DNA from: Escherichia coli | GTDB taxonomy: Bacteria > Pseudomonadota > Gammaproteobacteria > Enterobacterales > Enterobacteriaceae | NCBI RefSeq assembly: GCF_024223415.1 | Contig: NZ_CP100500.1 | Strand: one strand, 5' to 3' | DNA length: 64,000 bases | In this document: positions 3,425 to 52,107 of the stretch, in pieces | Layout of the letters: each line of letters opens with the position of its first letter | How positions within the stretch are numbered: position 1 is the first letter of the stretch | Notes under the pieces: model-generated | The model's database searches: none | What the model was told of the DNA's origin: nothing | What the model saw: the letters and a program-made list of their open reading frames with translations, nothing else | Made by a program: the position numbers and the translations under genes

Positions 3425-4591
3425 ATGATTATTTCCTCACCTGCAGATTACAGGGACGCCGCAAAACACAGACTGCCACGCTTTCTTTTTGATTACATAG
3501 ACGGCGGGGCTGTTACTGAAAAAACCATGCATGAAAATATGACCTCTTTATCTTCGGTCAGCCTCCGGCAGCAGGTGCTTTGTGGCGCCGGAGCCCCCGA
3601 ACTGAACACCACCATCCTTGATTCAGAATGGGCCATGCCTGTTGCTCTGGGCCCCGTCGGTGCCACTGGCATGTACGCCCGTCGTGGAGAGGTGCAGGCA
3701 GCCAGAGCGGCCTCAGCAATGAACATCCCTTATACTCTCTCAACCGTCTCCGTCTGCCCGATCGAAGAGGTCGCCGGACACGCTGACGGGCAACTGTGGT
3801 CCCAGTTATACGTCCTTCGGGATCGTGGTTATATGCAAAACGCACTTGAACGCGCCTGGACTGCAGGTATGAAAACCCTGGTATTTACCGTCGACATGCC
3901 TGTGCCGGGCTCCCGGTACAGGGATAACCATTCAGGGATGTCAGGTCCCCACGCCACACTGCGTCAGTATCTTCAGGCCGTTCTTCATCCCCGCTGGGCG
4001 CTGGATGTGGGAATTGCCGGTCGTCCTCTGTCATTTGGTAACATCGAAACGTACACCGGGCATAAAATGTCGATGGATGACTATATGGGCTTTATCAGCA
4101 AAAACTTTGATCCCTCTATTGCATGGAACGATCTCGAATGGATCCGTGATGGCTGGAAAGGTAAACTGATAATAAAAGGGATCCTTGTTCCGGAAGATGC
4201 AAAAAATGCTGTACGGCTTGGCGCGGATGGCATCATTGTCTCCAATCATGGCGGACGTCAGCTTGATGGTGCCATCCCCACGGCCAGGGCATTACCGGCG
4301 ATAGCAGATGCAGTGGGTGATGACATCACGGTACTGGCGGATTCAGGTATTCGTTCCGGTGTGGATGTGGTCCGGATGCTTGCTCTGGGGGCAAAAGGTG
4401 TGCTGCTGGGAAGAGCGTATATTTACGCACTTGCCGCTGCGGGAAAAAAAGGCGTTGAGCACCTGCTCAGACTTTATGCTGAAGATATGAAAGTCACCAT
4501 GACGCTGATCGGCGCTTCTTCTCCCGCTGATATCAGCAGCAGAAATCTTGAATATCTGGAAAAAGAATTCTCCCGACATTCATCATCCTGA
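3425..4591 (+). CDS. FMN-dependent alpha-hydroxy-acid dehydrogenase, L-lactate dehydrogenase (LldD) paralogue
   Basis: Collinear with E. coli LldD as recalled (…[12 protein letters not shown]…, …[11 protein letters not shown]…). Confidence 0.85.
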
Positions 4592-35111: not shown

Positions 35112-36938
35112 ATGTACAATTTTATCACTATAATGTATGATGTCTTTTCATGTTTTGGTGTTCTGGCTAAAAACCAGAATATCCGTGACATCCGAAATAT
35201 TAAAAACTTTTCCTCACATCAACATTCACTGGCCGACATGTTTGATGAATTAACATACATTATTGACAAAGAACAGGTACTGAGCACAGAACAACGAAAA
35301 GTTATATTCAGGAGATATGAAGATCTGTATGTTAAACTCATGCACTATTCTGTTTTTACAGACAAAACACATCAAATAATAAAACAAAAATATTTTAATG
35401 ATGTTGTTCCAATGATTCTCGCGCTCGACATCAGGAACACATATCGCCCGGATAATGAGATGGCATTTTACTATCATATCCATTCTTTTCTCACTCAGAT
35501 ACCGGATAATGAGGATGATATATATCATGCTGTAAGGACATATATGAGAAATTATGTTAAGTTATGTTTATCCGGATACACACCAACGAATGCGCATTTC
35601 AAAAATATCTTTGATGGAGTATATGAATTCATTCGTAATATTCGCAAAAACAGTACACCCGGAAAAACAAAACTTATTGCAGCTATCAACATATGCAAAG
35701 AAGCCTGTAAATATCTGCTTTGTTTAAGTGATAAAGACAAGGAAATAATATTTTCCGACTTAGATAAAATTCAGGTTGCATGTTATTCTCTCACTATATT
35801 ACTGGCTTTCGAAAGACGAACATCATTAACAAGTAACCTGGCAACTTTATATAAAATGCTGATAAACGAAAGAGAAGTTTCAGAATATGAATGTCAGCAA
35901 TTATATTTAATCAACCCAATAGATGTAATGAATATACTGAACAAATACATATATTACTTCCCTGGTGAGAATTCACCTCTTTATACACTGAAAATTGACA
36001 GTGCATTATCGTGGGATGCCATTGATGCAATACGAGACTATAGTATTTCTGATATTTATCTTTATCCTGAACAAAAAACAATAAATTGTATCGTTGAGAT
36101 TGAAAACATTGTCTTTGGCGGTTACATTTATACATTGAGCGACGGCGTCACATTACAAAATATGGAAAACACTTTAAAAGATTCCTCATGTCATTATGTA
36201 TTAAATGGCTATACAGAATTTGTTAACTGTTTAAGACAACTTACTTCAGGAAAGACTGAAAGTGTTCAGCGTACCATTAATAAACTGGAGTACGAAAAAT
36301 TACCTTTTGGATTTATCATTGCCGCGTTTGCTATATTAAAAATAGCATTTAAGATAAAGTTCAGTAAAAATCATGTAAATACCAGGGCATTATTAAATGA
36401 CATCAGTTATTTTATGACTTATCAGGGCGAGTCCATTAATCTTATTTCACTGGATCATGAATATCCAGAGTTCCGTCTTCAAAATGACACAAATACATAT
36501 TTATTGGGAAGGATGATATTTCTATATAACTCAATGATCTATAAATTCAGAAACTGCCAGGAACATGAAACCAATAACATTAACTCAGTTATGATAAATA
36601 ACCTATTACAGGAAGTTGATATAGCCCTTGGTAAAATAAATGACATTATAGACAGCAGAAACATATCAGTCCCCCATGAACTGGCAAATATTCTTATCCA
36701 CGAAAAAATACTTACAACACGTGAAAAAAAAGGAAACCTGATAAGCCTGTTTGATGGATTCACTTTATTCCATTGTGTTGGAATGATAACCTTTCTTATC
36801 CATTACCTCAGAACTCCTGAAGAAAAAGTAGAAAATGTATTTATGTTATATGGTGCAGATAAAAACAATAAACTACGCAGAAGACTGATTTATGATGCAC
36901 TAGAAATAATTCAGTCTCAGCAGGAGATGAAACCTTAA
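35112..36938 (+). CDS. Hypothetical protein, 608 aa, AT-rich orphan (no recognisable domain)
   Basis: AAGGAG six nt upstream of the ATG; composition far more AT-rich than flanks; hairpin 36962-36986 downstream. Confidence 0.8.
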   Translation: MYNFITIMYDVFSCFGVLAKNQNIRDIRNIKNFSSHQHSLADMFDELTYIIDKEQVLSTEQRKVIFRRYEDLYVKLMHYSVFTDKTHQIIKQKYFNDVVPMILALDIRNTYRPDNEMAFYYHIHSFLTQIPDNEDDIYHAVRTYMRNYVKLCLSGYTPTNAHFKNIFDGVYEFIRNIRKNSTPGKTKLIAAINICKEACKYLLCLSDKDKEIIFSDLDKIQVACYSLTILLAFERRTSLTSNLATLYKMLINEREVSEYECQQLYLINPIDVMNILNKYIYYFPGENSPLYTLKIDSALSWDAIDAIRDYSISDIYLYPEQKTINCIVEIENIVFGGYIYTLSDGVTLQNMENTLKDSSCHYVLNGYTEFVNCLRQLTSGKTESVQRTINKLEYEKLPFGFIIAAFAILKIAFKIKFSKNHVNTRALLNDISYFMTYQGESINLISLDHEYPEFRLQNDTNTYLLGRMIFLYNSMIYKFRNCQEHETNNINSVMINNLLQEVDIALGKINDIIDSRNISVPHELANILIHEKILTTREKKGNLISLFDGFTLFHCVGMITFLIHYLRTPEEKVENVFMLYGADKNNKLRRRLIYDALEIIQSQQEMKP

Positions 36939-36961
36939 ACAGGAAAATTATTTTTTATAAA

Positions 36962-36986
36962 CAGGGGATTATTGAGTAATCCCCTG
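36962..36986. terminator. Hairpin CAGGGGATTA-N5-TAATCCCCTG between the convergent 608-aa ORF and int
   Basis: Perfect 10-bp inverted repeat; T-run on the minus-strand side. Confidence 0.5.
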
Positions 36987-37122
36987 CTCATCAAAACCCA
37001 CTTTCCTGACAATCTGATAACTATCAGCTCAATACATTTGACATAAAAGAGATCCCTTAATTATTACCGTTACGGTCACAATCACATATCAAATCATGAT
37101 TGTACAATATACATTTTCACTA

Positions 37123-38325
37123 TTATTTATTCATAATCTGAGACATCACATAATCCGCCCATGCCTGCATCATCGGTACACGCTGCTCCAGTAGATCAGT
37201 ACGATGATATGCCGCCTCAACCTTATTTTTCAGCGTATGAGCGAGCGCCCTTTCAGCCAGATCCCGCGAATACCCCTGCTCACTACACCAGTCCCTGAAT
37301 GTTGAACGAAAACCATGTGCCGTGGCGACTCGCCCCGGAATATCACTGACGGCTTTCTTTTTACGCAGAAAACTGGTCAACACCATATCTGAAAGGATCT
37401 GCTGCTTTCTGGGTGAAGGAAACACCAGTTCATCATGCAGACCACGTATATTTTCCAGAATGTAAATAGCCTGTCGGGATAAAGGAACACGATGCTGTAC
37501 CCTGGCTTTCATTCTTTCTGCTGGTATCGTCCATATCTGCTTATGAAAATCAATTTCAGTCCAGCGCATTCCCCTGGCTTCACCCGAGCGGGTTGCTGTA
37601 AGTATCACCATTAATAACAATGCGCGGGTAACATTATAGGGTTCATCGGTATACACACTGGTCGCCACAAAAAGCGGTAACTGCCTCCATGGCATTGCGG
37701 GTTGGTGTTCATCACGTCCTCTTGTCTGCTGGGGAAGCAAATGATCAACCACATCCACAGGATTTGCCACACAAAAACCATGTGCCCATCCCCACTGCAT
37801 AACAACATGAATGCGCTGTTTAACCCGGCTTGCCGTTTCTGACAAAGTTAACCAGACTGGCCGCAGTGTTTCTGCCACGTCCGCAGCCGTAATCGAATCC
37901 AGCGTTTTCGCTCCCAGTTGAGGAAAGGCGTAATTCTCAAGCGTCGATAACCACTGCCGGACATGCTTTGGATTTTCCCATCCAGGAGACAGTTCTGCAT
38001 GTACACGTCTGGCTGCATCGGCAAATGTTGGGATAACAACTTTTTCAGCCTCAGCCTTTTTAATCTCCAGAGGATCATCACCAGCAGCAAGTTGCTCTCG
38101 CATTATCCGGGCAGTACGTGCAGCTTCAGCAATGCTGATCTCAGGGTAAGTTCCCAATCCAGCATTACGCCTTTTTTGTGTCACCGGACTTACATAACGA
38201 AAAACCCATTTACCCCGACCCTTTACTGAAGAAGGATGAAGGGTCAGTCCTGTAATTCCCCCATGGGGCAATGGTTTGTCATCAGGTTTGATATGCCTTG
38301 CTTTCGTATCCGTCAATACTGCCAT
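37123..38325 (-). CDS. int: Tyrosine-type site-specific integrase (P4/CP4-57 IntA-like)
   Basis: IntA-like N-terminus and C-terminal catalytic region (…HGFRSTFRDW…, …LAHTLKNKVEAAYHR…). Confidence 0.9.
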   Translation of the reverse strand: MAVLTDTKARHIKPDDKPLPHGGITGLTLHPSSVKGRGKWVFRYVSPVTQKRRNAGLGTYPEISIAEAARTARIMREQLAAGDDPLEIKKAEAEKVVIPTFADAARRVHAELSPGWENPKHVRQWLSTLENYAFPQLGAKTLDSITAADVAETLRPVWLTLSETASRVKQRIHVVMQWGWAHGFCVANPVDVVDHLLPQQTRGRDEHQPAMPWRQLPLFVATSVYTDEPYNVTRALLLMVILTATRSGEARGMRWTEIDFHKQIWTIPAERMKARVQHRVPLSRQAIYILENIRGLHDELVFPSPRKQQILSDMVLTSFLRKKKAVSDIPGRVATAHGFRSTFRDWCSEQGYSRDLAERALAHTLKNKVEAAYHRTDLLEQRVPMMQAWADYVMSQIMNK

Positions 38326-38343
38326 ACGCTAATTCCTGTTACT

Positions 38344-38367
38344 CTGGTATGCCATCTGGTATGCCAT
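38344..38367. repeat. Tandem 12-bp direct repeat CTGGTATGCCAT x2 upstream of int
   Basis: Two exact adjacent copies; possible integrase arm-type or promoter element. Confidence 0.5.
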
Positions 38368-38485
38368 TATCTTCACGCTTCAGTCAGAATACAGTAGATG
38401 ACATCAGACAGTAAAATATGCAATATACTGTTTATAATCAAATTTTATGACACAACAGGACTCATTCAGATTCATTTCAGGCGGT

Positions 38486-38499
38486 CCCCCTCACCGCCA
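38486..38499 (+). other. 3' remnant of tRNA-Ser (serW-type att core)
   Basis: CCCCCTCACCGCCA matches the last 14 nt of E. coli tRNA-Ser(GGA); the remainder of the tRNA is absent upstream. Confidence 0.5.
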
Positions 38500-38500
38500 T

Positions 38501-38540
38501 ATTTAAAGAAGAGCTCGTACGAAAGTGCGAGCTTTTTTTT
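38501..38540 (+). terminator. Rho-independent terminator after the tRNA remnant
   Basis: GAGCTCG-N10-CGAGC followed by a nine-T run. Confidence 0.6.
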
Positions 38541-38543
38541 TCG

Positions 38544-38692
38544 CATTTTATCTGCCTGTACGGCAGTGAACATGGTGGGCGGGTGGAGTATGTTACCAGT
38601 GAATTTCTAAGCTGCCTGTACGGCAGTGAACGTTTGCTGCAACCGCTAGCCAAGACGGTAGGTTTTTCTAAGCTGCCTGTACGGCAGTGAAC
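38544..38692 (-). CRISPR. Orphan type I-F CRISPR mini-array (3 repeats, 2 spacers, no cas genes in window)
   Basis: Two exact copies of TTTCTAAGCTGCCTGTACGGCAGTGAAC (38604-38631, 38665-38692) plus a degenerate copy ending at 38571; spacers of 32-33 bp. Confidence 0.8.
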
Positions 38693-38850
38693 TCAAATAC
38701 TACACGTTTAGCCCGTTGTTAATAAAGCAAAACCATCCCATTCTCCTGCAGCACCCTTTTTTATCCTTACCTTCCAGCAGCACTAATTATCAACAACTTA
38801 CCTTCACCTCCAAAAATAGGGTTTTCACCGTTCCACCCCATAAATAAAAA

Positions 38851-38878
38851 GTCCGTAACCTCTTTCGAGATTACGGAC
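38851..38878 (-). terminator. clpA rho-independent terminator
   Basis: GTCCGTAA…TTACGGAC hairpin just downstream of the clpA stop, with a T-run on the minus strand. Confidence 0.6.
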
Positions 38879-38903
38879 TTCACCAACCTACCTGACAATC
38901 AGA

Positions 38904-41615: not shown

Positions 41616-41637
41616 ATGATAGATAACTATCATTTAT
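41616..41637. repeat. Left attachment-site direct repeat ATGATAGATAACTATCATTTAT
   Basis: Matches the right repeat at 52086-52107 at 20 of 22 positions. Confidence 0.6.
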
Positions 41638-43699: not shown

Positions 43700-43840
43700 G
43701 AGATAGAGCGAACAACAAAACCACCACCAACCCGAAAAGGCTCATAAATAGCGAAAATCCGCAAGGTCGACGCCCCGTAACGGGTCCACATGCCGGAAAG
43801 GACCCATAAAAAATAAAGCCGGACTACTCCGGCTTCGTCT
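43700..43840 (-). other. Lambda-type cos site (cosQ-cosN-cosB-like)
   Basis: Minus strand reads GGGTCCTTTCCGG…GTTACGGGGCGTCGACCTTGCGGATTTTCGCTATTTATGA, near-identical to the lambda cos region as recalled. Confidence 0.7.
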
Positions 43841-44860: not shown

Positions 44861-45271
44861 TCAGAAGGGTATATCATCTCCGTAGGGGTCATCGCCTCCC
44901 GCTGGTGGCTTATTCCCCTGTGCGCCTGTGGTTTTGCGTGTTTTTCCGCCCGGTCGCACTGTCCGCGCACTGATTACGCTGTCTGCGATAACCTGCCAGC
45001 CCTGCCGCGTTTCCCCGTTCTGTCCGGTCCACTGGCTCACCTGCATGTTACCCGCCACGCTCAGGAGTTCACCCTTGCGGTGCTTTGCCAGTGCTTCGGC
45101 CTGTCTGCCAAACGCCAGCACAGATAACCACATCGTCGCCGTTCCGTCATCTGCCTGGCTGCACGGAAGGGGGACCGCCATACTCGCCATCGCCATTTGT
45201 GTCCCCTTGCTGGTGGTCTTTAACTGCGGGTCAGCCACCAGCCGCCCGTAAGCCGCTATCTGTGCTGTCAT
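44861..45271 (-). CDS. ssb: Single-stranded DNA-binding protein (SSB-like)
   Basis: OB-fold-like N-terminus and Gly/Pro-rich tail ending in the acidic DDIPF motif. Confidence 0.75.
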   Translation of the reverse strand: MTAQIAAYGRLVADPQLKTTSKGTQMAMASMAVPLPCSQADDGTATMWLSVLAFGRQAEALAKHRKGELLSVAGNMQVSQWTGQNGETRQGWQVIADSVISARTVRPGGKTRKTTGAQGNKPPAGGDDPYGDDIPF

Positions 45272-45525
45272 GCTGTATGCTCTCCGGTTTTAACGTTGAT
45301 GGTTGTCACCTGTTCCGCTCCGGCAATCTCCCGTTCTGTCAGCGTGGCAAAATTTGCCGCTACCGTTGTCATGAATGCGCTTATCAGTGCGGGATGTGCT
45401 TTCGCGTATCCTTCTCCCGCGCTGCGGTCGATAATTTTTATCGCCACCCTCAGCCAGTGCTCTGTAAGGTCAATGGCGCGGTTATGTGGTTTCTTCTGAT
45501 TATTAAGTTTTCCTGATGTGTGCAT
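45268..45525 (-). CDS. Hypothetical protein (85 aa)
   Basis: ORF coupled by overlap to ssb. Confidence 0.4.
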   Translation of the reverse strand: MHTSGKLNNQKKPHNRAIDLTEHWLRVAIKIIDRSAGEGYAKAHPALISAFMTTVAANFATLTEREIAGAEQVTTINVKTGEHTA

Positions 45526-45569
45526 TTTTATTTTTACCCCCTCGTTTAAAAAGTTTTGTGTTGTGGTGC

Positions 45570-45805
45570 ACCTCCTCTACCTCTCTACACAATCATCTTT
45601 CAGGTCAGTAATGGCGCGGCTTTCAGCGGGGTAGAGGGCTTTTTTGGCCCTCTACCTGCCATCTACCACCCCCTCACAAATGCCCTGAATTATGGTAGAG
45701 GGTGTAGAGGGCTTTTAAGTACCTTCTACCTGCCATCTACCCAATCTATCAACATGAAATATATGTAATTATTTTCTTAAGGTAGAAGGGGTAGAGGGCT
45801 TTTGT
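45570..45805. repeat. Iteron cluster, candidate replication origin of the island
   Basis: GTAGAGGGCTTTT x3 (45631, 45704, 45790) and CT(C/T)CTACCTGCCATCTACC x2 (45651, 45724), directly downstream of the replication gene. Confidence 0.6.
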
Positions 45806-45811
45806 CTAAAA

Positions 45812-47560
45812 CTATAAAAACGCGTCGCAGTCGTCTGTTGTTGTCACGTTGGTTTGCGTAACCCCTTTAATCCTGCGCGTTATATATTCATGTCCGTAAA
45901 CTTTCGCCGCTGGCTTCATGGCCTTGCTGAACTCAGCCACGTTCAGCGGTTTGCTCCTGCCTGCATACGCCATAAACGCCAGATAGACGCGGTAAAGGCT
46001 GTTTCTGGTCGTGTACTTCACGGAATCGCCACCGCCCCCCATCATCAGGCCACGTGCTTCCTCCAGAAAATTCAGGAACTGGCAAAACTCAATAACCGGA
46101 TCCGTTTGCTGCTTTATCGCCAGTGCTTCATCACCGTCACGCTGTTCCAGTAGTAAAGCCCGCGCCTTTTCAGGGTCTGCAAAGTTCGCCAGTAATCGGC
46201 GGATAATGACGGGGATTTCAGCCGCAATCCTTTCCGGTAGCTCCCTGTCTTTTTCAGCCTCACTGACGATATTGTCGAAACGAAAAATCACGCGACGACG
46301 TGCCACACCTCCGGCCCGTTCGGTGAATATCATCGGGTTATTGTTGGTCGCCAGCACCACCGCCCTGATTACAGCCGTGAAACGCTTTTCGTATTTCGGG
46401 TTAATTTCCACGGGGTCACCGCCCGTGATTTTCTTGATGCCCGTTCCTTCGCCTGTATATTTCGGCTGGTCTGCCAGGACGATAAGACGACTCCCGACAA
46501 CCTGCGCACGCCCACCAGCATCATCAAGCGATGTCATCTCAGCGCTTACCGTGTTCTGTTTCCCTGCCAGAAGGCTGGCTATGTGCGTGAATGTACTTTT
46601 ACCGCTCCCGCCGTCTCCGGTGGCCTCAATAAACATCTGCCAGTCGTACCGGTTCGCCATAATCATGTACAGCGCGGCACATATACGCATCATCTTGCGC
46701 GGGTCTTTTCCGGCTGCGTGCTCAAGCCATTTATGAAAGTTTGGCGCGTTATCGCGGATGTTCTCCCCAGGTGCTGGTGGCGTGTACTCAATGCCATTGT
46801 GCGTGGTGATCCAGTTCTCCGGCGTGTGCGGGGAAAATTCCCCCGTTTTCAGGTCAAGCGCACCATTGGCGAACGGCAGCAAATCGCCGGACGGCTCGCC
46901 CATTGGTTCGGCAATAACTTTTAACGCTTCCACGGCGTTATTGATTACGCGCTTGCTGAAAGTGGCCCTGTGCTCTGAATAGATCGCCACCATTTCGCGG
47001 CTCAGTTCCATTGTGCTGACCGGACACCATACCCCGCCGCGCCATACGTGAACGATTTCACTTTCCGGATGCACACAAACGCCATCAAATCGACCAGCAA
47101 GCATCTGTGCGCGCTCACTGTCTGCCATTTGTGCCAGTTGCGTATTTTTCTGCTCCGGCATGGTAAGCCCTGCAGCAATATTTTCACGCTCAGCATTCAG
47201 ATAACGCCGCCAGTTTTCACACTTCTGACCGTGCATTCCTTCGGGGTAAAAATTTGCGTCCTGTACGCCAGCCGCCGCCAGCTTCTGACCAATCGCCTTT
47301 ATCATTACTGGCGCAAGATATCCGGCCCTGAATATACGCACGGATTTTCTGCCTTCCGGCACAATTTGCAGCTTATCCAGTTCGGATAACTGCTGCTCCC
47401 CAAGCCACACAGGAGGCTCATTATCTCCGGCCATACGCGCGTCATGTTCCTGCCATTGTTTCGCGTGTGCCCAGGCATCACTACCCGCAAAAATAATGAC
47501 TTCAGTTCCTTTGTGTTTTATGCCGCGTGACTGCAGTTTTACGTTCGGTGCCAGTTTCAT
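45812..47560 (-). CDS. Replication protein with SF3-type helicase domain (P4-alpha/D5-like primase C-terminal region)
   Basis: Walker A ATGDGGSGKST and Walker B-like RLIVLAD in the C-terminal half. Confidence 0.8.
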   Translation of the reverse strand: MKLAPNVKLQSRGIKHKGTEVIIFAGSDAWAHAKQWQEHDARMAGDNEPPVWLGEQQLSELDKLQIVPEGRKSVRIFRAGYLAPVMIKAIGQKLAAAGVQDANFYPEGMHGQKCENWRRYLNAERENIAAGLTMPEQKNTQLAQMADSERAQMLAGRFDGVCVHPESEIVHVWRGGVWCPVSTMELSREMVAIYSEHRATFSKRVINNAVEALKVIAEPMGEPSGDLLPFANGALDLKTGEFSPHTPENWITTHNGIEYTPPAPGENIRDNAPNFHKWLEHAAGKDPRKMMRICAALYMIMANRYDWQMFIEATGDGGSGKSTFTHIASLLAGKQNTVSAEMTSLDDAGGRAQVVGSRLIVLADQPKYTGEGTGIKKITGGDPVEINPKYEKRFTAVIRAVVLATNNNPMIFTERAGGVARRRVIFRFDNIVSEAEKDRELPERIAAEIPVIIRRLLANFADPEKARALLLEQRDGDEALAIKQQTDPVIEFCQFLNFLEEARGLMMGGGGDSVKYTTRNSLYRVYLAFMAYAGRSKPLNVAEFSKAMKPAAKVYGHEYITRRIKGVTQTNVTTTDDCDAFL

Positions 47561-48052: not shown

Positions 48053-48340
48053 TTATTCATGGCTAACCACCTCCTGGAATTTTCTTCTGTAACGCGCCTC
48101 TGCCACATATTCAGCATAGTCCGACGCAATATTGAGAATATCGCTACCCGTTCCTGAATGTTCGGCGGTTTCCAGTAAAAAACATGCAGCTTTTACCATG
48201 TCAGCAACACATAACAGCGCAATATCTGTATCTTCCGGTGTGCCATCAAATTCCTGTTTCAGGGCATTAAAACGATCATCACGCATAACCCCATATTCAC
48301 AATCAGCAATCAGGATGGCTTTGGCCTCATTCAGTGCCAT
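48053..48340 (-). CDS. Hypothetical protein (~95 aa; only plausible part of the long ORF 48053-50041)
   Basis: C-terminal segment reads like protein while the rest of the 662-aa frame is low-complexity; start at ATG 48340 assumed. Confidence 0.35.
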   Translation of the reverse strand: MALNEAKAILIADCEYGVMRDDRFNALKQEFDGTPEDTDIALLCVADMVKAACFLLETAEHSGTGSDILNIASDYAEYVAEARYRRKFQEVVSHE

Positions 48341-49381
48341 ATCAGCGGTAAGCTGTGCGTAGGCCAGCAAATGCGGGATTATTGCCCCTGTATATTCCGG
48401 CTCTCTGATAATGTGGTCGGATGTGTTGATTAAATAGTTTGTGCGAAAAATGCACCTGTAACCATCAGTTAACAACGGATATACAGGGGGGACCATGAAT
48501 GATAAGGGGGTGCCGTTTGATGTGCTCCTGCAAAAGCTGAATGCTGCACGCGCCGCAAGGGAACGTGAGCGCATGAGTAATAACCCTGTCCCTCCTGAAT
48601 TACCTCGCCCTGAACATTTTCCGCTTGAGGATTTCATCAGGGGACGAATCCGAACAAAACGATAACCGCCGCCGTGATATGAGGCATCACGACGCAATGC
48701 ATTACAGGTGAGCACCATGAACAAATCCATATTATCCCCCACAGTTCTGGACGTAAACACAAAGCAGCGACAGATATTATTACGCGCCGTCATTAAAGCC
48801 AGACACGAGAAATTAAACCAAATCTTAAAATAAGATACGCCGCTACCGCTGTAAGTCTTCATCAGAAACAGAAAACGCCAGAGCAGATGAGCACGGAGGT
48901 AACTCTTTATGAAAATAAACGAATCAGGGGAAATTACCGAAGCCAGCGTGGTACGCCAGCGGAGGCGGGAACGACGGGTACGGCCCCCCGCGCCATCCGA
49001 TAATTTCCCGCTTGAGCGCTTCATCAGTGAACGGCCCCGCATACGCTGGAACGGCACAACCCCATACCCCGAGGAGAGACAGACAAAAAACAAACAGCGA
49101 TGATGAAATCTGGAGGCCAATACCATCACCCAGCCAGTCGGGGATTGCTGGCGGGCTTCCTGTTCGCTGGTGGCCCCGATGGTAATAACGCGTGGTTGTG
49201 CTGTGCTCAGGGCGATAAAACGCCAGATGTATTTATTCAGGTTGTGCGGGTCCCGCCCTTGCGGGTGTGTGGTATGATTTAACATAGCTACCTCGATACG
49301 CTTTCTATCGTTGGTGGTTAGAAGCCCCGTTACTGCTCCAACAGTGCGGGGTTTCGTCGTTTCTGCACCTTTCATCAACAA

Positions 49382-52085: not shown

Positions 52086-52107
52086 ATGATAAATAACTAT
52101 CATCTAT
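52086..52107. repeat. Right attachment-site direct repeat ATGATAAATAACTATCATCTAT
   Basis: Pairs with 41616-41637. Confidence 0.6.

Follow-up and report, generated by a model that had tools for sequence, protein, structure and literature searches.

What is the role of a cluster of short repeats that lies in a non-coding gap directly behind a replication gene? The question is raised by a 64-kb stretch of Escherichia coli DNA (the window), in which a gap of 286 bp (45526-45811) separates two minus-strand genes and holds iterons within 45573-45798. The gap begins directly after the stop codon (45812-45814) of pri-rep, while on its downstream side lies a gene for 85 aa (45268-45525, minus strand), and beyond it ssb, perC, proQ/FinO and a gene for a Nu1-like small terminase. 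The original prediction of a non-coding stretch of ~230 bp is borne out, the array covering 45573-45798 in a region that is non-coding in the RefSeq annotation of near-identical genomes. A related form of the gap, which is unannotated, occurs in 544 of 5,426 complete E. coli genomes. Judged from its sequence, the array very probably serves as the replication origin of a phage-inducible chromosomal island (PICI), a small phage-parasitic element of 10.5 kb inserted between cspD and clpS.

The repeats consist of a single 9-bp word, GGTAGAGGG, with the invariant core GGTAGA, present in both orientations and in 11 copies in the gap. Two interleaved iteron families, of three and two copies, had been proposed earlier. 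The strings themselves are present: GTAGAGGGCTTTT has three exact matches (45631, 45704 and 45791), and CTCTACCTGCCATCTACC has one exact copy at 45650-45667 and a second at 45724-45741 with one mismatch (TTCTACC...). The division into two families does not hold, since CCCTCTACC is the reverse complement of GGTAGAGGG and all copies therefore belong to one family. With up to one mismatch, GGTAGAGGG has 15 matches in the 64-kb window (7.66 expected over the whole window), ten of which fall in the gap; the eleventh copy, TGTAGAGAG at 45581-45589, is more degenerate. The GTAGA/TCTAC pentamer occurs 53 times in the window, and 11 of these copies lie inside the 286-bp gap where 0.19 would be expected (Poisson P about 2e-16), so that the clustering is far beyond chance. 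Elsewhere in the window, no stretch of 286 bp holds more than two such pentamers.

Read in gene direction, the gap shows the pair s1-s2, an AT-rich stretch, the alternating pairs s3-s4, s5-s6 and s7-s8, the single copy s9, a 22-bp block, the pair s10-s11 and a leader:

45790-45798, plus strand: iteron s1, GGTAGAGGG, the copy closest to the pri-rep stop codon
45781-45789, plus strand: iteron s2, GGTAGAAGG
45742-45780, no strand: AT-rich spacer, 39 bp, 82% A+T, between the oppositely oriented pairs s1-s2 and s3-s4
45733-45741, minus strand: iteron s3, GGTAGATGG
45722-45730, minus strand: iteron s4, GGTAGAAGG
45703-45711, plus strand: iteron s5, TGTAGAGGG
45694-45702, plus strand: iteron s6, GGTAGAGGG
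45659-45667, minus strand: iteron s7, GGTAGATGG
45648-45656, minus strand: iteron s8, GGTAGAGGG
45630-45638, plus strand: iteron s9, GGTAGAGGG
45605-45626, minus strand: conserved non-iteron block, 22 bp, GCTGAAAGCCGCGCCATTACTG in gene sense
45581-45589, minus strand: iteron s10, TGTAGAGAG, degenerate copy
45573-45581, minus strand: iteron s11, GGTAGAGGA
45526-45572, minus strand: conserved leader and ribosome-binding region of the 85-aa gene, AAAACTTTTTAAACGAGGGGGTAAAAATAAAA

The AT-rich stretch is off-centre, with two copies on one side and nine on the other, and the spacer at 45742-45780 is presumed to be the DNA-unwinding element. Copies s8 and s9 together make an inverted repeat whose 10-bp arms match perfectly and stand 7 nt apart. 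The window gap contains no DnaA box, IHF consensus, Fis-like site or GATC.

The element that carries the array can be delimited. The att core of the PICIs inserted between cspD and clpS is ATGATAGTTAT (Table S1 of PMC6092414), and this string occurs exactly twice in the window, at the two ends of a 10.5-kb island lying between cspD and clpS:

41623-41633, minus strand: att core repeat ATGATAGTTAT, clpS-side end of the island, exact match
52093-52103, minus strand: att core repeat ATGATAGTTAT, int/cspD-side end of the island, exact match

The order of the island is int, an HTH gene (alpA-like), an icd-like gene, DUF4222, pri-rep, the gap, the 85-aa gene, ssb, perC, proQ and terS. Its size (PICIs have about 8-12 kb), its integrase and att site, its alpA-like regulator and pri-rep, and the lack of a full set of phage structural and lysis genes all agree with the definition of a PICI, and the set of genes corresponds to that of EcCIIHE3034 and EcCICFT073. 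A near-identical island (99.8% over 1 kb) lies between clpS and cspD in E. coli Br_112_kylling, in the order int, small HTH regulator, Icd-like gene, DUF4222, pri-rep, gap, ssb, perC, proQ, terS. Related PICI copies number up to six per E. coli genome.

The candidate initiator is the product of the gene in front of the gap, whose relevant segments are as follows:

45812-47560, minus strand: pri-rep gene, 582 aa, with D5_N at 151-280, the SF3 helicase P-loop domain DUF5906 at 314-415 and the Pox_D5 C-terminal domain at 485-575
45830-46105, minus strand: segment coding for the C-terminal winged-helix origin-binding domain, residues 486-577, by match to the P4 domain
45926-45937, minus strand: codons 542-545, first turn of the predicted recognition helix

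Comparison with solved structures matched residues 193-430 of Pri-Rep with the SaPI5 PriRep5 helicase (7OLA, E 4e-15) and residues 486-577 with the phage P4 origin-binding domain (1KA8, E 9e-7). A structure model of residues 476-582, of moderate confidence (mean pLDDT 63, with 72-87 in about residues 516-555), has three helices and then a beta-hairpin; its top fold match is again 1KA8 (E 6e-4), and the next are winged-helix domains of ORC/Cdc6 on origin DNA. From these domain matches, Pri-Rep is presumed to be an initiator-helicase. An array immediately 3' of a primase/helicase gene had been predicted; both the position and the helicase stand, whereas the label 'primase' is not supported, as no primase catalytic domain is recognisable. 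Database matches to Pri-Rep cover the helicase and C-terminal DNA-binding parts only, residues 1-150 (47111-47560) match no Pfam or NCBIfam family, and the name 'primase' traces to TIGR01613, a model that lies over the helicase part.

Origins of this kind have been described in Gram-negative PICIs, where rep is directly followed by an AT-rich region between sets of iterons (Fillol-Salom et al. 2018, ISME J, PMC6092414). In EcCICFT073, a fragment with pri-rep and ori maintains a temperature-sensitive plasmid at the restrictive temperature, and deletion of either rep or ori impairs plasmid maintenance; deletion of ori lowered colony numbers, abolition not being reported (PMC6092414). The Pri-Rep of the window shares 94% identity with the EcCICFT073 protein and 93% with the EcCIIHE3034 protein, and the window gap aligns throughout with the gaps of both islands, with the iterons in register. 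Given the 94% identity of the initiators and a gap that can be aligned with its iterons in register, the array can be regarded as the homologue of an experimentally tested origin. The expectation that a pri-rep origin should lie at this place is supported by the correspondence with the origin site described in Gram-negative PICIs and by the homology of the gap to that of EcCICFT073 and EcCIIHE3034.

The three origins have in common the number, the positions and, for all iterons but one, the orientations of the repeats, as well as the AT-rich spacer, the conserved block and the leader; EcCIIHE3034 also has the same att site as the window island. The exception is one iteron near the AT-rich stretch, whose arrangement is >> in the window and >< in the CFT073 class. 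Outside the iterons, the window gap is only about 70-86% identical to the EcCICFT073-type gaps. The bases that follow the core are mostly GGG in the window (GGTAGA-GGG), in contrast to C or T, then A and G, in EcCICFT073, EcCIIHE3034 and EcCIATCC25922. The late module differs too, the window island having proQ/FinO and perC and no capsid genes. The origin type is thus one already described and tested in a close relative, and the prediction is correct but ordinary; within this known type, the sequence sets the window island apart as a distinct iteron subtype with a different accessory module.

Conservation of the array was followed in a scan of IMG/VR that yielded 80 loci with Pri-Rep proteins 89-100% identical. 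Together with the window, the near-identical E. coli island, EcCIIHE3034 and EcCICFT073, these loci give 57 distinct gaps. All but one of the 57 keep 10-11 GTAGA cores (the remaining gap has nine), and their positions and orientation order are nearly constant. In 593 of the 612 sites counted, GTAGA is preceded by G. The six core bases reach a column conservation of 0.91, against 0.78 for other columns of the gap; lowest, at 0.60, are the three bases that follow the core. It is at these last bases that two classes of iteron can be told apart: the window class has mostly G at the second base after the core (typically GTAGA-GGG), and the class of EcCICFT073, EcCIIHE3034 and ATCC 25922 has GTAGA-(C/T)AG. 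In the AT-rich spacer, composition is kept more than sequence, with a mean of 77% A+T in the 57 gaps against 53% for the remaining gap. The 22-bp block at 45605-45626 is nearly invariant among these diverged gaps and has no counterpart in the origins of those PICIs whose initiator is of the RepA type. It could serve as a site for a host factor, in priming, or as part of a transcript. None of the 57 gaps contains an exact DnaA box or an IHF consensus.

PICIs with other initiators carry other words at the same place and in a similar layout. In EcCIRM13514 and EcCI224, which have a second D5/P4-type allele, the origin word is TGTTCACC/GGTGAACA, identified in the annotated P4 record as the P4 type-1 repeat; in EcCI042 and EcCI11128, which have RepA-family helicases, the words are AAAGTGAGG and AAAGTGGGG. 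Initiator type and repeat word thus change together, as expected if the repeats are the binding sites of the initiator. As a separate observation, TGTTCACC/GGTGAACA is present in about 9-12 copies downstream of rep in EcCIRM13514 (L087:7600-7850) and EcCI224 (L088:6093-6330).

The comparison with phage P4 brings in another reading, in which the array would be a cis-acting helper region like P4 crr that binds the initiator and stimulates replication, and not the start site. P4 alpha is also a helicase initiator with a homologous C-terminal winged helix (1KA8), and P4 has short iterons of 8-9 bp in both orientations, with one iteron region, crr, directly behind the gene for the initiator. In the annotated P4 record, crr occupies 4291-4590, 3' of alpha, and the annotated ori is about 4.5 kb away; the window array therefore sits at the position equivalent to crr, behind an initiator whose binding domain is homologous to that of alpha. 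P4, however, combines an ori with a distant crr, whereas the window island has a single iteron cluster, no second one being found in the island or the window at more than two pentamers per 286-bp stretch. The array moreover includes an AT-rich stretch of its own, with iteron pairs in opposite orientation on its two sides, and in EcCICFT073 rep and the adjacent region alone sufficed for plasmid replication (PMC6092414). A purely auxiliary role of the crr kind is thus very unlikely. The two systems also differ in their iteron word, since TGTTCACC, the word to which alpha binds in P4, is absent from the window gap and has two chance-level matches elsewhere in the window, and in their initiators: alpha has 777 aa against 582 aa for Pri-Rep, the N-terminal 150 residues of which have no primase family match.

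Regulation of transcription has also to be considered, as the gap directly precedes the next gene cluster and contains one weak sigma-70-like match on the gene strand (45718-45689) that overlaps iterons. Initiators of other replicons commonly also repress transcription at their own iterons. On this reading the repeats would mainly be operators for the 85-aa gene, ssb, perC, proQ and terS, bound by Pri-Rep or another regulator of the island, and not an origin. The promoter match, however, is at chance level (one found against 0.6 expected). An AT-rich stretch surrounded by eleven sites that face both ways resembles an origin in its architecture, the word follows the initiator type and not the regulator genes, and the homologous region matters for the replication of EcCICFT073 (PMC6092414), all of which makes an array of operators very improbable as the main function. 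A secondary regulatory role is compatible with the origin reading. Hardly any credit can be given to a pattern due to chance or duplication, or to a hairpin or terminator, without sequence-specific function: s8 and s9 can indeed form a 10-bp hairpin and the spacing of some repeats at about 74 bp could reflect an old duplication, but the clustering (P about 2e-16) and the retention of copy positions in 57 diverged gaps while flanking bases drift are against it.

Other candidates for the region were rejected. No terminator-like site was detected, the s8/s9 hairpin being followed by no T run on either strand, and Rfam at permissive thresholds gave no match to an RNA gene in 45200-46100. Instead of a long-period tandem duplication, Tandem Repeats Finder detects only a local periodicity of 8-11 bp. 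A phage origin was also considered, and comparison with a phage collection gave no match. A 70-aa open reading frame on the plus strand (45556-45768, TTG start), located inside the repeats and unannotated in related genomes, is regarded as spurious and is most likely a repeat artefact.

A functional class with which the array can be compared is that of the SaPI origins, which have 6-12 short iterons downstream of rep and an AT-rich region with at least two opposite-facing iterons on each side (PMC9371898). This layout is found in the window, with 11 copies and the pairs s1-s2 and s3-s4 opposed around the AT-rich stretch. SaPI Rep proteins are described as self-loading helicases whose C-terminal winged helix recognises the iterons (PMC9371898), and their helicase core is homologous to that of Pri-Rep, as seen with 7OLA. 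In this class the winged helix binds iterons without ATP and melts the origin; for Pri-Rep, the analysis shows the domain homology and the association of the 3' gene block with the iteron class. SaPI origins nevertheless have no sequence relationship to the window origin, the AT-rich region of which is off-centre (2 + 9), and they belong to another host and another island lineage. Iteron origins of theta plasmids (pSC101, R6K and RK2 type) likewise have initiator-site repeats beside an AT-rich unwinding region. Their iterons are typically of 17-22 bp and mostly direct, and they rely on a non-helicase Rep together with DnaA boxes and host DnaB. The window origin, unlike these, has 9-bp words in both orientations, neither DnaA box nor IHF consensus, and an SF3 helicase as initiator.

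A mechanism can be proposed along these lines. A helper phage would first trigger expression and excision of the island. Using its C-terminal winged helix, Pri-Rep would then bind the eleven iterons with their GGTAGA core, and protein assembled on both sides of the 39-bp, 82% A+T stretch would melt it. Pri-Rep would load itself as the replicative helicase, without DnaA, and the amplified island DNA would become available for packaging. Binding to the sites, melting at the AT-rich stretch and self-loading of the helicase are inferred by analogy with SaPI Rep and P4 alpha. Replication of P4 is DnaA-independent. The absence of DnaA boxes, IHF consensus and GATC from the gap fits the reading of a DnaA-independent, self-contained origin.

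How the two iteron subtypes are matched to their initiators can be approached through the C-terminal domain. Among 71 distinct pairs of protein and gap, 70 show agreement between the subtype (GTAGA-nGG or GTAGA-nAG) and two Pri-Rep residues, A or N at position 542 and S or G at position 545. Mutual information between class and residues 542/545 reaches 0.90 of 0.996 bits, and no residue upstream of 541 comes close. Both residues belong to the first turn of a predicted helix just ahead of the beta-hairpin, and in winged-helix domains the helix at this place usually serves for recognition. Synonymous sites in codons 541, 544, 547, 551, 570 and 573 track the iteron class about equally well, and nucleotide sites before codon 541 do not, which indicates that the last 127 nt of pri-rep and the gap form one inherited block with a sharp 5' edge. 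The association between amino acids and iterons seen in these alignments is therefore consistent with co-adaptation, but it is confounded by linkage and not separable from it. An argument against linkage, that variable residues nearer the gap correlate less with the class, does not hold, as synonymous sites as far as codon 573 follow the class just as closely. The sole exception among the 71 pairs is a recombinant metagenomic locus (IMGVR_UViG_3300029303_000153, L010), in which A542, E543 and S545 of the window type are joined to iterons of the CFT073 type; it could serve as a natural test of whether the pairing of residues and iterons matters.

A further proposal, tentative and at present rather doubtful, is that the last 41 codons of pri-rep and the origin constitute a specificity cassette of ~410 bp, which three substitutions would retarget to give orthogonal replicons. 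The 41 codons would correspond to the recognition helix and wing of the origin-binding domain, with a recombination boundary at codon 541, and the substitutions A542N, E543D and S545G would shift Pri-Rep between GGTAGA-GGG and GGTAGA-(C/T)AG iterons. If this were true, several PICIs could coexist in one cell without cross-initiation or interference. The map of subtype by initiator designates three residues and two to three base pairs as candidates for swapping replication specificity and, with the sharp block boundary at codon 541, goes slightly beyond the literature consulted. The result as a whole marks an unannotated 286-bp gap as a likely origin of a PICI satellite, with exact iteron coordinates, and carries little weight beyond annotation.

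Other features of the island and its surroundings are recorded here as minor observations. The Icd-like gene (48053-49285, minus strand) encodes 410 aa, whereas its counterparts in EcCICFT073 and EcCIIHE3034 have about 66 aa; the match to the Icd model is confined to residues 19-60, the other 350 residues having no Pfam or PADLOC match, and the gene may be an accessory gene fused to Icd. Its open frame reaches upstream to 50041, in a part that overlaps an annotated YlcI/YnfO gene on the opposite strand. Between proQ and the small-terminase gene, GGGCGTCGACCTTGC at 43761-43775 (minus strand) has two mismatches to the string GGGCGGCGACCTCGC of the lambda/phi80 cosN region and could be the cos site of the island; a match of this type arose in 11 of 100 shuffles, so that a single one is not significant alone.

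Beyond the island, the window holds no tRNA genes; the strain with the near-identical PICI has a tRNA-Ser to the left of clpA. Two type I-F CRISPR repeats and one spacer lie beside clpA (38604-38631 and 38665-38692, minus strand; Rfam CRISPR-DR4, 50 bits each) and look like the residual CRISPR array of the E. coli clpA-infA region. At about 36500-38900, a tyrosine integrase is annotated in related genomes, and a second mobile element probably adjoins clpA on its other side.
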